Both the position numbers and the translations under genes were made by a program. The notes beneath the pieces were generated by a model that had not been told where the DNA came from, did not search any database, and was given only the letters and a program-made list of their open reading frames with translations. Positions 20,807 through 27,929 of a DNA stretch of 64,000 bases are shown here, one piece after another; within the stretch, counting starts at the first letter, position 1; each line of letters starts with the position of its first letter. The stretch is from NCBI GenBank assembly GCA_051892935.1, contig JBJFGS010000025.1, forward strand, positions 80,813 to 144,812, in the 5' to 3' direction. Source of the stretch: Candidatus Coprovivens sp. Lineage in GTDB: Bacteria; Bacillota_I; Bacilli_A; RF39; UBA660.

Positions 20807-22813
20807 TTACCCAACAGGTGGAATAAAATTAGGTTTAATTGTTCCATTATTACTAACTTGACCATTTGAAGAAACATTCGGCATCATCATATCTGGTTTA
20901 GAATTATCATAAAAATTAGTAATAACTTGAGATTGAACTTCGTTAGTAGGCTGAGAAACAACATTACCTGTATCATTAGCAGATTTTGCATTTACCTGAG
21001 AAACAGCTACACCTCCACCACTCTGTTGATTACCAGAATTATTAGAATTAGCAGCCGTTCCATGAACTTTCCAACAATTATTAACATCACATGAATTAGA
21101 ATTAGGTGCAGGGTTAGGCATTTCCATTTTTATAACCATTGGTAGCTTAAATGCTCCACCAAATCCAACACAATTACCTGGCTGTAAAATTTTCTGCTTT
21201 TCAATAACATCAGCAGAAATATTAGGTAACATCGTTCTAATATATTCAATATCCTTAGGATGTGTCATTTTAAATATTAAGAAATTACTACATTGAGCAA
21301 TAACTGTTTCTGATATTTCTACAGGTCTTTGCGAAATTATATTAAGTAAAACTCCATACTTACGACCTTCTTTAGCAATTCTATCAAATATATTATATCC
21401 AATTAAGAAAACATCTGCATCCTTTTGAACATATCTATGAGCTTCTTCCAAAAACAAATGAAACGGAATTTGTGCTCTTTGTTTTCTAGTCTTACAAAAA
21501 TCAAAGAATATTCTAGCAATAATTTTAACAATAATCTTCGCTTGAGTATCATCAATATCTTCCAAATTAATATTAATAACTTGTGCTTTCTTATTACCAA
21601 CAGCAACTAACGAAGCAATATATGTTTCATAAGAAATATAAGTATCACATTTATATATATTAGCAATTTTACTATTTATCAAAGAATTTAATCTAACTTT
21701 TAATAACATAGAATCATCATATAATTGTTCATTACTTTGGAAACCTTCACTTATTAAAGTAAACTCTAAAGCCGCAGCAAAATCTCTCATTGAATAAAAA
21801 GCATTAACTGGTTCTTCAGTCATTTCCAAATCTTCATCAATATGTTTTAAAATATAATCAGTAATTAAAACAGATTCTCCAAAATTACCATTACTATCTA
21901 TTTCAAAACACTCAGATAACGTTCTAGTATAACCCAATCCTTGAATAACACTATCAAAATTAAAATCGTTAGTATGGCATACTTCTAATACCTTAAATAT
22001 TTCATTTTTCTTATTAGCAGTAATTTGATTACTATATAAAATAGCAATTAATGCTTTCGCTATTAAATGATCTTTATATCTATTAGCTACTTCATCATCT
22101 TTACTAAATATTCTAGTTAACTTTAAAGACCTTTCTATGATAGGAATTTGACTATGTTTATCTGCTTGTAACATAATAGTTAAATCATCCATGTTTAATA
22201 AATGAAAAGGAATCTTTAATTCGTAATCAGATTCTTCTTGAATATTAGTTGTAATAAATTTATAACTATAATTAGGATTAATCTTACCTAAATCTCTAAA
22301 AGCAGTCTTATATTCACCATAAGCATCAAAAATGAAAATATTAGCATTATAAGAAACTAAATTAGGATTAGAAAAGATATTTTGAACTAATCTTGCAACC
22401 CCACATGACTTACCTGAACCAGTATTTCCAAATACTGCCATATGATTAGCAAATAGATTATTAATATCAGCAAAAACATCATAATCAGTATAAATAGAGC
22501 TTCTTCCTAATTTAAATGTTGTCTCATCATAAACCCCAACAATAGCACTAAGTTCTTGATCATTAATAGTTCTTATTTTACTAGATAAAACAGGCTTTCT
22601 AATAACACCTGATACATATCTCCCATTCATAAATTCCCCAAGAAATCTTATTTTAATTATTTCATCAGTAACTTCTTCTACTTCACCCAAAATAGCTTGA
22701 TTTGGAGCTTCAAAAACTACATGGACATTCATTAAATCTCCCATTTCTTCAGCTTTAGCTATAGTAGTAACGTGAGCTACGTTTCCAGAAATAAATTTAA
22801 TATTACCAAACAT
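20807..22813 (-). CDS. HerA/FtsK-type P-loop ATPase (DUF87-like) with a disordered Asn/Ser/Gly/Gln-rich C-terminal tail
   Basis: Walker A AVFGNTGSGKSCG. HerA-type Walker B HLFLEEAHRYV. N-terminal beta-rich region preceding the P-loop. Start at ATG 22813 behind AGAGGTG. Confidence 0.75.
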   Translation of the reverse strand: MFGNIKFISGNVAHVTTIAKAEEMGDLMNVHVVFEAPNQAILGEVEEVTDEIIKIRFLGEFMNGRYVSGVIRKPVLSSKIRTINDQELSAIVGVYDETTFKLGRSSIYTDYDVFADINNLFANHMAVFGNTGSGKSCGVARLVQNIFSNPNLVSYNANIFIFDAYGEYKTAFRDLGKINPNYSYKFITTNIQEESDYELKIPFHLLNMDDLTIMLQADKHSQIPIIERSLKLTRIFSKDDEVANRYKDHLIAKALIAILYSNQITANKKNEIFKVLEVCHTNDFNFDSVIQGLGYTRTLSECFEIDSNGNFGESVLITDYILKHIDEDLEMTEEPVNAFYSMRDFAAALEFTLISEGFQSNEQLYDDSMLLKVRLNSLINSKIANIYKCDTYISYETYIASLVAVGNKKAQVININLEDIDDTQAKIIVKIIARIFFDFCKTRKQRAQIPFHLFLEEAHRYVQKDADVFLIGYNIFDRIAKEGRKYGVLLNIISQRPVEISETVIAQCSNFLIFKMTHPKDIEYIRTMLPNISADVIEKQKILQPGNCVGFGGAFKLPMVIKMEMPNPAPNSNSCDVNNCWKVHGTAANSNNSGNQQSGGGVAVSQVNAKSANDTGNVVSQPTNEVQSQVITNFYDNSKPDMMMPNVSSNGQVSNNGTIKPNFIPPVG

Positions 22814-22892
22814 AACCAACACCTCTTTTATTATATACAACTATATCTTAACACAAAACAAAAATAAATTAAATAAAAAAGAACTATTTTTC

Positions 22893-24722
22893 CTAGTTCT
22901 TTAATTTAACTTTATCATTCTGTATAATAGAATTTCTAAATATAGAATTCCTTATTTTATTAATATATTGACCATATAAATCAGGATTGAATTCCTTAAT
23001 AACATTTACAGCTCTATCAAACCTCAAACTATTAATGCCACTAACATTTAAATAATGAGTTTTACTTATGTAATCACCATTTATAAACTCTCTTATTATA
23101 AAAGAATGATGTTTTAACATTAATTCATCAACATACTGACGTCTAATTAATATACTACACGCTAACTCATCATATAATTTCTTTTGAACTAATAACACAT
23201 CACTTTTCAAAGAAGGATACAAAATATTTAAAGAAGCACACATATATTTAAAATCATCTAAACTAAAATTCTCTTCCTGATACATTAGTAAAGAACCATT
23301 ATCAGAAATAACATTAATCATTTCCTTTATATGTATTAACCCATAAGAAGCAAAATATTGATTAAATACACCATCTAAATAGTTTTTCCATTCTTTTATA
23401 GAAATGTATTTATAACCAACCATTTTTCTAATAAATTCCAAATATGCTTTATGAATAATATCTCTATTATGAATATCTGCATATATATCTTTTTTCCATT
23501 CAAGTAAAATTAAATCAAAAGTATTCTTCTTTACTTCATCACTATCAAAGAATATATTTCTACCAAAATACTTTTTATCCCTAGAATAAAACCACTTAAC
23601 AACATCATAAAAAGTATCTTGATATTCTTCACTAACATTTAAATAAATAAAATAATTTATAGTTACAGAAATAGGTCTTTTCAACTCTTCAAGTAAATAA
23701 TCATAATTACTTAATACATACTCTTTCTTTCGATTATAATTATCAAAAGAAAGAGCAAATTCATTTACTTCTCCTTTCCATTCTTCTCCCTTTATACTTA
23801 AACTTTTAGATTTACCTAAATATTCACGAAAACAATCAAAATTACAAAAAGAATCTCTATCATTATTTAAAATAATATATAATAATTCCCTGTTCAATAA
23901 AGAATATTTAGAATAATAAAAAGAACTAAAATTACTGCCAACAGTACTATTATAAAACTCTATAAACTCATCTAAAGTAAAATATAAATGACTACTAGTA
24001 TATTCTTTATAAGTAAGTAAAACACTCTTTCTTAAAACATCTCTATCAAAACTATTATCAATAATTAACATTATATTTTTAAATAATAAAGATAAATTTG
24101 ATACATCAAATAATCTAATATTTTCATAATCCTTAATAAAGAAAGAAATATCATCGAAAGTAATACCAAGTAATCTAAAATTATTAAGTAAAAACTTAAT
24201 ATCATAACAGCACATAAAAGAAACAGCTTTTTTCTTTCTTAAAACATTCTCCTTCTCATTATAAATATCTAAAAAACAATTATATAAATCATATATAGTT
24301 AAACATTTATTTAAAGCACTATAAGAAATAATATCATCATTAATAACATTTTCTATTAAAGAAGAAGAAAAAAGCTTTAAAACGCCTTTAAATACATCAA
24401 TATTACTAGATTGTAATAAATAATAAATAATAATATTTCTAACATCAAAATCTAAACAAACTTCATCCATTTCATAAAGTATCAATTCTCTACTACAAGT
24501 AAAATCAAGTAATTCAAAATCATCCATAAAATGATCAGAATAACAAAGTAATAAATCATTAATATCATCACTAGAAAAACTATCTTTACTCAATATATTC
24601 CTAAGTAATACTACTTCATCACTCTCTCCATATAAAAAATAAAGATTACTAAAAGCTCTTTTCTTCAACAATATAATCTTTTTAAAAACATATTCACTTA
24701 AAAAAGACTTTATATCATTCAT
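22893..24722 (-). CDS. large hypothetical protein (609 aa), paralog of the upstream 750-aa protein
   Basis: RBS AGGAGGAG. Shares conserved blocks with 24803..27052 (DDINDLLLCYSDH, GITFDDI, YLLEELKRPI...YF..LNV......F....V.W......YFGRN.). No known domain recognised. Confidence 0.6.
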   Translation of the reverse strand: MNDIKSFLSEYVFKKIILLKKRAFSNLYFLYGESDEVVLLRNILSKDSFSSDDINDLLLCYSDHFMDDFELLDFTCSRELILYEMDEVCLDFDVRNIIIYYLLQSSNIDVFKGVLKLFSSSLIENVINDDIISYSALNKCLTIYDLYNCFLDIYNEKENVLRKKKAVSFMCCYDIKFLLNNFRLLGITFDDISFFIKDYENIRLFDVSNLSLLFKNIMLIIDNSFDRDVLRKSVLLTYKEYTSSHLYFTLDEFIEFYNSTVGSNFSSFYYSKYSLLNRELLYIILNNDRDSFCNFDCFREYLGKSKSLSIKGEEWKGEVNEFALSFDNYNRKKEYVLSNYDYLLEELKRPISVTINYFIYLNVSEEYQDTFYDVVKWFYSRDKKYFGRNIFFDSDEVKKNTFDLILLEWKKDIYADIHNRDIIHKAYLEFIRKMVGYKYISIKEWKNYLDGVFNQYFASYGLIHIKEMINVISDNGSLLMYQEENFSLDDFKYMCASLNILYPSLKSDVLLVQKKLYDELACSILIRRQYVDELMLKHHSFIIREFINGDYISKTHYLNVSGINSLRFDRAVNVIKEFNPDLYGQYINKIRNSIFRNSIIQNDKVKLKN

Positions 24723-24802
24723 ATATCTCCTCCTAAAGTCAAATTAATATAACAAAAAAGTATATTAAAGTAAATAAAAAGAATTAGAAAAATCTAATTC
24801 TT

Positions 24803-27052
24803 TTACTTTTTACCAACATGTTTAACACCATCTAATTCATCTAAATATTCTTTAGTAATCTCTCCCTTTAAAACTTTATTCAAAGCTCCTTTATACAAAG
24901 AATAATAATTAGATAATCCTTTAATCCTTAAAAACCTTAAAGCAAGCTCTTTTTCTTCAAGACTAACTTCATGCATAATATCATCAATTTTAATAATAAG
25001 TCTTTCATTAAATATCTCTTGATTAGTAACTAGTCTACTAGATTTAACCATTTTTTCAAAACTTCTAAATTGTCTAATATTAATACTATTCAACTTTTTA
25101 GAATTAACTACTAAAACAGTAAATTTATCAAAAGGCAAATTAGTTAACAAACAATAATCTAAAAAAGTAAAAGGTCTAACTATACCATTATCATTTACAC
25201 CTTCAACTAAAGCTTTTAAAACATAATCAACCATTTTCATAAGTACAGCATATCTTTGAGATTTTAACATATCAAACTTATTAATAAACTGAATGTATAA
25301 ATTATAATCATTCTCCATAACATTATTCAAAATCTTATCAAATTGAGTTTCACTAAGTCCTTCTTCTTCCAAAAAAGCTTCTTTACTTTTGTAATCCTTA
25401 TTTAAAAATCTTTCTAAAAGGATAGAACACTTTCTTGCTTCTTCCATTTTTTTATCAAGGTTTCTCAAATCTAAAACTCTATTCTTATCATTTGTATATA
25501 CATCATATAAAATAACTAATTTATTTTCCAATTCAGGATGTTTACTCTTAAACGCATCAAAACAAAGATCGAAATCATCAACTAAACCAATTTCTTCAGC
25601 TTTTAAATATATATTATCCACTTGATTGACTAATGACAAAAGTATCATCATTCTATCATAACCAATTCTATAATAGTAATCCTTTTCCAATAGTTTCATT
25701 TGATTATTCCAAGAACTTTTAGAAATATATCTTTTACCTAAAAATTTACATACAATATCATAGTATTCTTTATATATAGCATTACGATTAACAAAATCTA
25801 AAGTAATCTTTTCTCTACAATTATCCAAAATATCTTTATAAGTATTTTGTTGTTCTTCGACACTAGATTTTAAAACATTTCTTCCGAAGTATTCATAATC
25901 ATTCTCACAAATCCAAGAAACTATTTCTTTAAAAAAAACAATATCTTCAACATTAACATTTAATAAAACAAAATAATCAAAAGTAAATCTAATAGGTTTC
26001 TTTAATTCTTCTAATAAATATGAATATTCTTTTAGAACTCTTTCTTTATTATGATAGTTTTTAACATCTAATTTACACCAATAATCGATAAATGATTTAT
26101 ACCTATTAGTATCGCTTAAAAAAGAACTATGTTTACTAAAAATATCGTATATACCAGAAGAGCCTTGAACCATAAATCTAAAACTAATGCTTTTCATTAT
26201 TGTATAAAACAAATCTACTGACAATAAAACAGGACCATCACTATTTATATAAAAAGAACTAAAATCATCTTTAAAAGTATCATTATAATAAGAAATAAAA
26301 TCTTCATCTAAGAAATTAATATGTAATTTAGAATACTTATCGTATTCACTAATTACTTTATTATATAATTTTTCATCACCCAAAGTTCTATGTTTAATAC
26401 TAAATTGATTATTAAGTATTCTCCGACATTCTTTTTCATTTAATGATATATTCTTTTGATCAGCCAAAGAAAAAAAGTCATCAATATCATCAAAAGTAAT
26501 ACCTATTTTTTTAAATTTATCTGAAAAGAAAGAGTAATCAATTAATCCCATTAAAGCAATAACTTTCATCTTTTTTTCTTCTATATTAGAAATATTACAT
26601 ATATCATTAACTAAAATATATAAGTCATATAAAGACTCACCAATATGCAAATCAACAACACTCTCAATAGAATCACTTCTTTTAAAGAAACAATCATAAG
26701 GAATACATTGTAAAACCCTTAAATTAAAGTCAAAATCCTTTATACTTAATAAATAATATAAAATTAAATTAGTAATATTAAAAGTAGTCCCAAATTGTTC
26801 AAAATCATAGTATAATTCCTTATTATTTAATACTAATTCCAATATTTCTTCATTACTTAATAAATGATCAGAATAACAAAGTAATAAATCATTAATATCA
26901 TCTAATGAATAAACACTCTTACCTATTATATCTTTATAAGTATTATAATCCTCATTACTATCAAAATAATAATATTTTTTCAAATCTTTCTGAGTAGCAA
27001 TTTTAGCACAAAAAGAAATACGCAAACGTTGTATGATTTCTTCAAAATCCAT
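24803..27052 (-). CDS. large hypothetical protein (~750 aa), paralog of the downstream 609-aa protein
   Basis: Start reassigned to ATG 27052 behind AGGTGATG. Same conserved blocks as the 609-aa paralog. No known domain recognised. Confidence 0.6.
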   Translation of the reverse strand: MDFEEIIQRLRISFCAKIATQKDLKKYYYFDSNEDYNTYKDIIGKSVYSLDDINDLLLCYSDHLLSNEEILELVLNNKELYYDFEQFGTTFNITNLILYYLLSIKDFDFNLRVLQCIPYDCFFKRSDSIESVVDLHIGESLYDLYILVNDICNISNIEEKKMKVIALMGLIDYSFFSDKFKKIGITFDDIDDFFSLADQKNISLNEKECRRILNNQFSIKHRTLGDEKLYNKVISEYDKYSKLHINFLDEDFISYYNDTFKDDFSSFYINSDGPVLLSVDLFYTIMKSISFRFMVQGSSGIYDIFSKHSSFLSDTNRYKSFIDYWCKLDVKNYHNKERVLKEYSYLLEELKKPIRFTFDYFVLLNVNVEDIVFFKEIVSWICENDYEYFGRNVLKSSVEEQQNTYKDILDNCREKITLDFVNRNAIYKEYYDIVCKFLGKRYISKSSWNNQMKLLEKDYYYRIGYDRMMILLSLVNQVDNIYLKAEEIGLVDDFDLCFDAFKSKHPELENKLVILYDVYTNDKNRVLDLRNLDKKMEEARKCSILLERFLNKDYKSKEAFLEEEGLSETQFDKILNNVMENDYNLYIQFINKFDMLKSQRYAVLMKMVDYVLKALVEGVNDNGIVRPFTFLDYCLLTNLPFDKFTVLVVNSKKLNSINIRQFRSFEKMVKSSRLVTNQEIFNERLIIKIDDIMHEVSLEEKELALRFLRIKGLSNYYSLYKGALNKVLKGEITKEYLDELDGVKHVGKK

Positions 27053-27125
27053 AAAATCATCACCTATCATTGTATAAATGATAACATAACAAAACATTCC
27101 GTGCAAATTAAAAAAGATTTATATT

Positions 27126-27929
27126 TTAAATCTTTTTTAAATTTTTACTATTAATAAAATTTAAATGTTTCAAATAATGAAATTTACTTCTATAGATAAT
27201 GCCAGTATCAGAATCCTTAATAGCACCAAAATCATCAATATATTCATCATCACTCTTAGTTACTAAAGTAGGATCAAAAACTTTTATTTTTTCTTCTTGA
27301 ATATCTAATCCCCAATTTTCAAAAGTTATATTAGCAAGTTGTTGTTCCAAAGGAACATAATTAGGATTATCAACTATTTTATAGCACCCATTACTCATAT
27401 AAATAGATTCCATATCAACAATAGCATATTTACTTGGAACATCTTGCATAACAAATCTATCTGCTATACTAATAAGTTCACTTTGTGCAGAGAGCCCCTT
27501 ACCTTTTACAGATATATTAATACATCCTTCATGATAATGATAACAAGAATACTCTCTTTTAATTTGTTCAAGTATTTCTTTATTTTCATCAGATAAGCAA
27601 TCAATCTCTAATTCAATCCAAGCATCCTTATCTATACTATCACTACACATAAAAGTATAAATATTCTTACTCCATAATATTTGGCAAGCTGGAACACATT
27701 CTTCAATTATCCATCTACGAGGTTCTACCTCTACCATTTCTTGTGAAACTCGTGGAGCACCTTCATATTGTTTATTATTAGCAAGCTTTTTCCCACTAAT
27801 AACAGCTGCTGTATCATTTAATTTAGAAGATAACCTTCTATACAATATAGAAACCTTTAACTTAGCTTTATCAAGTATAGTTGCTTTTCTCCCTAATCTT
27901 TCATCTAATAACATTTCATCTAAATTCAT
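27126..27929 (-). CDS. hypothetical Cys-rich cytoplasmic protein (267 aa), first gene of the HerA-like operon
   Basis: RBS AAGGGGA. About 10 Cys including CVPAC and C.H.HEGC clusters (possible metal site). No known domain recognised. Confidence 0.55.
   Translation of the reverse strand: MNLDEMLLDERLGRKATILDKAKLKVSILYRRLSSKLNDTAAVISGKKLANNKQYEGAPRVSQEMVEVEPRRWIIEECVPACQILWSKNIYTFMCSDSIDKDAWIELEIDCLSDENKEILEQIKREYSCYHYHEGCINISVKGKGLSAQSELISIADRFVMQDVPSKYAIVDMESIYMSNGCYKIVDNPNYVPLEQQLANITFENWGLDIQEEKIKVFDPTLVTKSDDEYIDDFGAIKDSDTGIIYRSKFHYLKHLNFINSKNLKKI

Follow-up and report, generated by a model that had tools for sequence, protein, structure and literature searches.

Organization of the locus

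The window, i.e. the whole 64,000-nucleotide stretch of Candidatus Coprovivens DNA that was analysed, carries two adjacent genes, A and B, flanked by the genes of a Cys-rich protein, p267, and of a HerA-type ATPase (Table 1). The product of gene A is 100% identical to a hypothetical protein already published for a Candidatus Coprovivens MAG, and the known carriers of A and B are uncultured gut Bacilli, namely Candidatus Coprovivens and its relatives. A BLASTP alignment of the two proteins is collinear over ~600 residues, with 30% identity and an E-value of 2e-62, and takes in the LGITFDDI, YLLEELK.PI and YFGRN blocks. A previous reading of this DNA, based on the sequence only, had described A and B as diverged tandem paralogs; their collinear similarity, including the blocks named in that reading, and their adjacency on the minus strand support this description. 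Furthermore, in a neighbour-joining tree the A sequences form a clade apart from the B sequences, and each clade holds orthologs from several genomes. An assembly artefact was ruled out, since the same gene order is repeated in at least four independent assemblies. Collectively, these data make it very probable that A and B stem from an old tandem duplication, which took place before the split of the related genomes carrying both genes.

Table 1. Features of the A/B locus, in window coordinates
Feature	Coordinates	Strand	Description
HerA-type (DUF87) ATPase	20807..22813	-	Downstream gene; Pfam DUF87 2.8e-22, PADLOC HerA model 2.8e-110
Gene A, 609 aa	22893..24722	-	ORF; short paralog of an orphan all-alpha family, without the C-terminal domain
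41-nt island, copy in A	24529..24569	-	Codons D52-H64 (DDINDLLLCYSDH) and 2 nt
AT-rich hairpin followed by a T-run	24772..24809	.	Inverted repeat; overlaps the B stop codon, 5' of the A ribosome-binding site
Gene B, 749 aa	24803..27052	-	ORF, with the 749-aa length and the ATG start as in the public annotation; long paralog with an extra C-terminal domain
B-only C-terminal domain (~residues 600-749)	24806..25255	-	From alignments; contains NGV..G.VRPF.FLDY
41-nt island, copy in B	26862..26902	-	Codons of DDINDLLLCYSDH and 2 nt
p267, Cys-rich, 267 aa	27126..27929	-	Upstream gene; conserved neighbour of the locus

The AF2 model of A is entirely helical (pLDDT 86.9), and that of B (pLDDT 87.7) shows a mixed alpha/beta fold for the C-terminal domain. 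This domain is also present in remote homologs of 700-950 residues, among which D632 is invariant, and B represents the ancestral architecture of the family. Between the two genes, an 80-nt spacer holds an AT-rich hairpin and is kept in L004, the genome with the closest A ortholog. Judging from its sequence, the hairpin may act as a weak terminator or attenuator, and a terminator scan that requires GC made no call for it.

The 41-nt island encodes the best-conserved peptide of the family

The longest exact repeat of the region is a 41-nt direct repeat, AAATGATCAGAATAACAAAGTAATAAATCATTAATATCATC, present in two copies in the window, one in each gene. No further copy with up to three mismatches was found in the window, and none in 100 shuffles. 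The 41/41 nucleotide identity noted in the sequence-only reading is thus real, but the positions given there (24530-24570 and 26863-26903) were shifted by +1 relative to the plus-strand coordinates of the two copies, 24529-24569 and 26862-26902. The repeat consists of 13 codons, specifying DDINDLLLCYSDH, and of the first two nucleotides of the following codon (TTT vs TTA). The amino-acid divergence of A and B begins exactly at both of its ends.

In an alignment of 19 family members, this peptide, located in the N-terminal domain, is the top-scoring 13-residue window, with a mean column identity of 0.92, compared with 0.75 for the next-best window and 0.57 overall. The family consensus reads [DE]D[IV]ND[LM]L[ILV]C[YFN]SD[HR], and residues D53, N55, D56, L58, C60, S62 and D63 are invariant in all 19 sequences. 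Position H64, on the other hand, is occupied by Arg in two of these close homologs (P0003 and P0019). In the remote homologs, the Cys is replaced by Asp or Gly, SDH is lost and INDLL alone persists. Thus, the Cys, Asp and His are not jointly invariant among homologs, and the suggestion that C-x-x-D-H could be a catalytic or metal-binding site did not withstand the comparison. INDLL is the conserved superfamily core of the motif, and we infer that the motif serves in protein structure or in docking to a partner, not in Cys/His catalysis.

Codon bias and the nucleotide identity of the two copies

The genome has a GC content of ~24%, and most residues of the peptide have one dominant codon: GAT (97%), AAT (95%), TGT (96%), CAT (100%) and TAT (89%). 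Given identical residues, the probability that all 13 codons are identical is 0.013 when calculated from the codon usage of the two paralogs. Of the identical residues elsewhere in the A/B alignment, 67% have the same codon in both genes, and the product of the per-residue codon-identity rates there gives ~0.0085. When Ser is limited to TCN codons and the third Leu to CTT, the probability rises to 0.048. When the longest exact run in the alignment was simulated, P(>=41) was 0.011. The sequence-only reading had allowed that codon bias might account for the identity and that the motif might lack conservation in homologs. The former part held, in that codon bias turns the identity from an astronomically rare event into a 1-5% event; the latter did not, the block being better conserved than any other segment of the family. 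As a counterweight, full identity is still no more than a 1-5% outcome under these nulls.

The identity is probably maintained in the following manner. Purifying selection on the protein would hold the 13 residues identical in A and B, and the AT-rich genome would offer one dominant codon for most of them. The invariant Ser would be locked historically in the TCN box, and the third Leu as CTT, a single change away from the ATT/GTT codons that relatives use. With the conserved residues, the dominant codons and the two locked positions combined, both copies would retain one string of modal codons, which is probably ancestral. An island that encodes the best-conserved motif in an AT-rich, codon-biased genome is ordinary and, as such, poor evidence of gene conversion. 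In all likelihood, the 41-nt island is composed of the codons of the best-conserved peptide of the family, and neither gene conversion nor a DNA or RNA element is needed to explain it.

Comparison with related genomes

The sequence-only reading had proposed recent gene conversion or a nucleotide-level constraint at the island, and neither found support in related genomes. In L001, L002 and L005, the A and B motifs of the same genome differ at 8, 6 and 3 of 39 nucleotides, respectively, versus none for the window pair. The mean A-B distance at the motif is 4.25 within genomes and 4.42 between genomes (n=24, one zero), so that paralogs of one genome are no more alike than those of different genomes. 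The identity does not extend beyond what the peptide and codon bias provide: it ends at the first amino-acid differences, and codon identity in the 40 codons on either side of the motif, 14/18, is ordinary compared with the gene-wide 67%. The closest A ortholog, that of L004 (94% identical, with 96% nucleotide identity), carries two synonymous changes, ATC and TTG, in its 13 motif codons, a rate above the 4.7% of codons changed gene-wide. Since the pairs differ elsewhere and this ortholog has changed synonymously within the motif, there is neither concerted evolution nor a nucleotide-level constraint.

A more restricted event, in which a micro-conversion between the tandem paralogs erased one or two synonymous motif differences in the window lineage, is unlikely. 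A and B are adjacent and in direct orientation, the codon-bias nulls give their identity a probability of 1-5%, and the two sites changed in the L004 gene are exactly those where A and B of the window agree, as a short B-to-A conversion would leave them. However, outgroups have ATT and TTA at these sites, and it seems that the L004 states are the derived ones. Moreover, the pattern is not recurrent, as judged from the pairs of the other genomes and the equal within- and between-genome distances, and the same 39 nucleotides recur in a different species (L005), within a B-type gene whose product is only 39% identical to B of the window and which cannot have undergone conversion with the window copies. 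The motif of L006 is one nucleotide away from this shared 39-mer. RecA-type exchange requires roughly 20-30 or more identical bases, whereas the tract stops at the amino-acid differences and its flanks, with ~54% nucleotide identity, contain no long identical stretch. Gene conversion can make duplicated bacterial genes evolve in concert, as with tufA/tufB of enterobacteria, and A and B resemble such genes as same-strand paralogs of one genome sharing a stretch of perfect nucleotide identity. In systems of this type, however, long tracts including synonymous sites are found in genome after genome, and paralogs are closer to each other than orthologs. The A/B tract, in contrast, is limited to 41 nt and shows none of this recurrence. 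It is still far less probable that both genes contain the 41-mer as a functional element of the DNA or RNA, such as an RNA structure, a binding site for an sRNA or protein, or a recombination site. The two exact copies at homologous positions and the recurrence of the modal 39-mer in other genomes would suit such an element. On the other hand, orthologs differ freely at synonymous sites of the motif: among the 11 copies compared, the non-identical ones show 1-9 nucleotide differences, including the two changes in the closest relative. Folding z-scores are -0.55 and -0.92, and Rfam returned no match in the window. This possibility is already largely refuted, and the codons of a conserved peptide remain our preferred explanation of the island.

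Searches for relatives of A, B and p267

No Pfam or NCBIfam match at E ≤ 0.1 was obtained for A, B or p267, and no usable match in Pfam, NCBIfam, PADLOC or PHROGs; none of the three matched a PADLOC model. Both alignments were also scanned member by member (Pfam at E ≤ 1, NCBIfam and PADLOC at E ≤ 0.01), and no consistent family emerged. PDB sequences gave no match to single proteins or to profiles. A SpoIIID-type helix-turn-helix DNA-binding domain (PDB 2l0k) gave a weak fold match, which concerns the C-terminal part of the region shared by A and B (A residues ~546-582). A link between A/B and the 2331-aa DUF4116 protein of the window, raised by the repetitive matches P0048 and P0081 of the profile search, was considered and rejected (hhalign probability 2.4%), and these matches look spurious. 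A scan of genome contigs found one locus only, and a scan of JGI metagenomes none. Literature searches on HerA with SepF or DivIVA, on HerA/DUF87 in Mollicutes and on Coprovivens turned up nothing on the A/B family. A and B belong to an orphan, lineage-restricted and confidently modelled all-alpha family without Pfam or PDB relatives or a firm fold relative.

Genomic context and possible role of A and B

Depending on the genome, zero, one or two A/B copies lie between the p267 and HerA genes. Orthologs of p267 are 55-73% identical, with seven invariant Cys and three invariant His, and the HerA-type ATPase, which ends in a low-complexity C-terminal tail, is 76-96% identical in related genomes. 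We infer that A and B may serve, without enzymatic activity, as scaffolds or adaptors that work with p267 and the HerA-type ATPase, and that they might bind DNA and might form a hetero-pair. The docking role of the motif, the partnership with HerA and p267, and the binding of DNA are suggested by the gene neighbourhood and the weak fold match.

A more specific proposal, in which A and B evolve fast as the specificity or sensor subunits of an anti-phage or DNA-processing system built on HerA and dock through INDLL to HerA and/or p267, is rather doubtful. Several features of the locus are consistent with it. Indeed, besides the variable copy number, A and B are hypervariable, being only 40-50% identical between genomes where the flanking genes are 86-97% and HerA 88-96% identical, and the dN/dS against the closest ortholog is 0.34. 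Furthermore, the ATPase matches PADLOC HerA models, and one distant genome carries a remote A/B homolog two genes away from an orthologous HerA (38% identity). Two other remote homologs, however, have no HerA nearby. In genomes without A/B, p267 lies directly upstream of HerA and both are conserved, indicating that they have no need of A/B. The locus keeps its syntenic place among housekeeping genes and is not in a mobile island. The ATPase scored 180 bits against the NCBIfam model HerA_antiphage_2, far under its cut-off of 850, and PADLOC, which is silent on A, B and p267, produced among 23 B-type and remote homologs a single weak match, to IetS (E 5.8e-4). The known HerA-partner modules (HerA-NurA, SIR2-HerA and DUF4297-HerA) likewise place a HerA/DUF87 ATPase gene beside accessory genes of the same strand, and the distant genome keeping an A/B homolog near HerA adds to this likeness. 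On the other hand, no NurA domain was found in A, B or p267, whereas NurA lies next to HerA in the module for DNA-end resection, nor was the SIR2 or DUF4297 domain of the anti-phage modules, where HerA would also have to reach the curated cut-off. Unlike the partners in these modules, A and B are large all-alpha proteins without recognisable catalytic motif, and HerA persists without them. By these comparisons, the locus fits neither the HerA-NurA nor the known anti-phage HerA systems. It is also improbable, though conceivable, that A and B diversify rapidly as non-enzymatic subunits, conferring specificity or acting as adaptors, in an undescribed HerA-centred machine. Its core would be p267 and HerA, with A and B inserted in zero, one or two copies between the two core genes, and the invariant INDLL motif of the N-terminal domain would be the peptide that docks each variable subunit to this core. 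As a separate observation, SepF and DivIVA genes lie between HerA and a remote homolog in L009, which hints at a role in cell division; other contexts are devoid of these genes.

Significance

In a genome of ~24% GC, a conserved peptide together with codon bias can yield a short island of perfect identity between old paralogs, and comparative data are required before such an island is taken as gene conversion. The locus itself offers a modest lead: an orphan family whose rate of evolution is several times that of its neighbours and whose copy number varies although its chromosomal position is fixed. If A and B do not work with HerA, they would be an ordinary lineage-specific pair of hypothetical proteins; if they do, the known range of HerA partners would be widened. 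Were the HerA-centred machine real, A and B would represent a protein fold family not described before, and HerA would gain a partner of a new type.

Two diverged paralogs share a 41-nt identical island

The neighbouring genes A and B stem from an old tandem duplication. Their products are collinear over ~600 residues with 30% identity (BLASTP, E 2e-62), an alignment that takes in the other shared blocks from which the sequence-only reading had derived this relationship, and their aligned codons show 54% nucleotide identity. Each product has a public counterpart, annotated as hypothetical, in a MAG of Candidatus Coprovivens sp. (100% identity and coverage); NCBI taxonomy places this genus in Bacilli incertae sedis. 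The longest exact repeat of the region is a 41-nt run, present in exactly two copies in the window, one inside each ORF. Allowing as many as 3 mismatches revealed no third copy in the window, and 100 shuffles gave none. The perfect identity seen in the sequence is real, with coordinates previously placed one base too high. On the coding strand the repeat reads GAT GAT ATT AAT GAT TTA TTA CTT TGT TAT TCT GAT CAT + TT, which is translated as DDINDLLLCYSDH, the last two bases belonging to a Phe or a Leu codon.

Features of the A/B region and of the wider window
Feature	Position	Strand	Description
HerA-type ATPase gene	20807-22813	minus	Q/S/N-rich low-complexity C-terminal tail
Gene A	22893-24722	minus	ORF, 609 aa
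41-mer, copy in A	24529-24569	plus	
Hairpin at B stop codon	24772-24809		AT-rich, followed by T-run
Gene B	24803-27052	minus	ORF, 749 aa from ATG; longer TTG-initiated ORF extends to 27106
41-mer, copy in B	26862-26902	plus	
Hairpin at p267 stop codon	27105-27143		AT-rich, followed by T-run
p267 gene	27126-27929	minus	267 aa; orthologs share 7 invariant Cys and 3 invariant His
A/B spot and flanking genes	20807-27929		resembles a hypervariable cassette within a conserved syntenic block
2331-aa ORF	54574-61569	minus	nothing recognisable except two matches to the 49-residue DUF4116 domain

The island is compatible with codon bias

The proper null for the island conditions on the 13 identical residues. 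Codon usage in A and B is strongly skewed for most of them (Asp GAT 97%, Asn AAT 95%, Cys TGT 96%, His CAT 100%, Tyr TAT 89%, Leu TTA 65%, Ile ATT 63%, Ser TCT 46%), and under this usage agreement of all 13 codons has a probability of 0.013, against 0.002 under the window-wide one. Outside the motif, codons are identical at 67% of the identical residues of the A/B alignment; the product of those per-residue rates gives P ~0.0085 for the full motif, and synonymous resampling over the whole alignment gave a longest exact run of at least 41 with P = 0.011 (median run 18). Two positions are restricted. A switch of the invariant Ser between TCN and AGY needs a non-Ser intermediate, and the third Leu is CTT wherever a copy has Leu there, with ATT or GTT (Ile or Val) in relatives. 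Allowing for these restrictions raises the probability to 0.048. Full identity is mildly unusual but not remarkable, since the island was chosen for being the longest match, and codon bias with codon-box lock-in makes it plausible.

The motif codons were then compared using DNA fetched from related loci. Over 39 nt, the A/B pair differs at 8, 6 and 3 positions in L001, L002 and L005, respectively, and the mean A-B motif distance within genomes (4.25) is no smaller than that between genomes (4.42, n=24). The B-type gene of L005 carries exactly the 39 nt of both window copies, in a protein only 39% identical to window B, and the single large gene of L006 is 1 nt off. In L004, the closest ortholog of A (93.6% aa and 95.9% nt identity), the motif bears two synonymous changes (ATC, TTG), while gene-wide the codon changed at just 4.7% of conserved residues. 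At the first of these sites outgroups carry ATT, ATA or GTT, at the second TTA or CTT, which makes the L004 codons look derived. Codon identity is ordinary (14/18) in the 40 codons flanking the motif on either side. RNA folding in the 101 nt surrounding each copy was unremarkable (z -0.55 and -0.92), and no Rfam family reached gathering score anywhere in the 64-kb window (1-64000).

These codon, flank and folding results argue against both explanations first offered for the island. A nucleotide-level constraint fits poorly with the L004 synonymous changes, the differing A/B pairs and the lack of folding or Rfam signal; recent gene conversion finds no echo in concerted evolution, within- and between-genome distances being alike and the flanks ordinary. 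Neither such a constraint nor concerted evolution is seen in the relatives. A micro-conversion limited to the motif, in the window lineage, would account for window A equalling window B exactly at the sites where L004 A differs, but it is improbable: the island does not need it, and such an exchange would lack a long run of identity in the flanks from which to begin. The island is what protein conservation ordinarily produces in an AT-rich genome.

The island encodes the best-conserved peptide of the family

The sequence-only reading would have been refuted by an identity no longer than codon bias predicts together with a motif not conserved in homologs. Codon bias does make the identity a 1-5% outcome; the motif is nonetheless the best-conserved peptide of the family. 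The family is small, 19 clusters in a search of 5.8 billion proteins, and no other 13-residue stretch comes near the motif in conservation (mean column identity 0.92, against 0.75 for the next best and 0.57 overall; 19 sequences), with D53, N55, D56, L58, C60, S62 and D63 invariant. His64 is Arg in 2/19 close homologs (P0003, P0019). Searching 1.84 billion representatives with a profile returned 71 proteins, including remote homologs of ~700-950 aa with about 14-21% identity. In many of these the N-terminal motif reads '[DEN]INDLLIDYS', with Asp or Gly in place of Cys and 'SDH' not retained. The conserved core is thus INDLL rather than a Cys/His pair, and the proposal of C-x-x-D-H as a catalytic or metal-binding site is unsupported. 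In structural models, the motif takes in the last part of a short helix (A residues 51-57) together with the loop that follows (pLDDT about 90); tentatively, it could be a structural or docking element.

In the alignment of close members, the N-terminal ~470 residues of P0008 group with P0003-5, and its C-terminal ~140 residues are nearly identical to P0013/14 of another clade, reflecting either inter-lineage recombination or a chimeric assembly.

Architecture of A and B

The AlphaFold models of A (pLDDT 86.9, pTM 0.60) and B (pLDDT 87.7, pTM 0.57) are both confident and nearly all helical. B has an additional C-terminal alpha/beta domain of ~150 residues (NGV..G.VRPF.FLDY and invariant D632), which is also present in remote homologs; the ancestral form is thus the long one, and A is a truncated duplicate. 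Pfam, NCBIfam and PADLOC gave no family match for A, B or p267, and the sole PHROG match among the three was marginal (A, E 0.024). Scanning the homolog alignments member by member, and ten remote homologs as well, revealed no family common to more than two members. The PDB sequence search gave no match, and Foldseek turned up nothing of similar fold (best E 0.017, TM about 0.1). A and B might be non-enzymatic scaffold or adaptor proteins, perhaps DNA-binding. The 2331-aa DUF4116 protein, considered as a relative, is unrelated (hhalign probability 2.4%).

A variable gene pair beside a conserved HerA

The order aspS-gatCAB-(gene of about 270 aa)-B-A-HerA(DUF87)-ThiF/TcdA-like recurs in L001, L002 and L003, and partly in L005. 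L006 has one large gene between a 268-aa gene and HerA; in L012 and L017-19, two further related lineages, a ~280-aa gene is directly followed by HerA, with zero large genes. The same chromosomal spot thus holds 0, 1 or 2 large genes, by lineage. In L001-L003, identity to the window proteins is 86-97% for aspS, gatA, gatB, RarA and GpsA, 88-91% for HerA (96% in L006, 76% in L012), 58-74% for p267 and 40-48% for A and B (40-50% among the related genomes); dN/dS between A and its closest ortholog is 0.34. The A/B pair is thus hypervariable and differs in copy number, with conserved genes on either side. The rest of the window is ordinary chromosome (uvrC, queA, relA/spoT, gatCAB, aspS, rarA, gpsA). 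The hairpins at the B and p267 stop codons may be weak terminators or attenuators between genes; a GC-requiring terminator scan did not call them.

The window HerA strongly matches generic PADLOC HerA models and falls far under the curated NCBIfam anti-phage HerA cut-offs. Its tail varies in length among genomes (total protein 634-715 aa) and ends in a conserved GTIKP[NS]FIPP. The Cys-rich p267 matches nothing in Pfam or PDB and has 68 homolog clusters. Within this clade its place is always just upstream of HerA or the A/B insert; distant homologs sit elsewhere, e.g. beside RNase J. One remote A/B homolog, P0029, lies two genes from a HerA 38% identical to that of the window (E 5e-139); two others examined have no HerA nearby. 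Around P0029, in a distant AT-rich genome (L009, 4808-10385), PP2C, a 203-aa gene, HerA, SepF, DivIVA and the 794-aa homolog follow one another in this order, a single case that hints at a cell-division neighbourhood. A and B might conceivably cooperate with p267 and HerA; since these two persist without A/B, any such role would be accessory. The orphan, fast-evolving A/B family next to this conserved HerA is a secondary lead, and a modest one.
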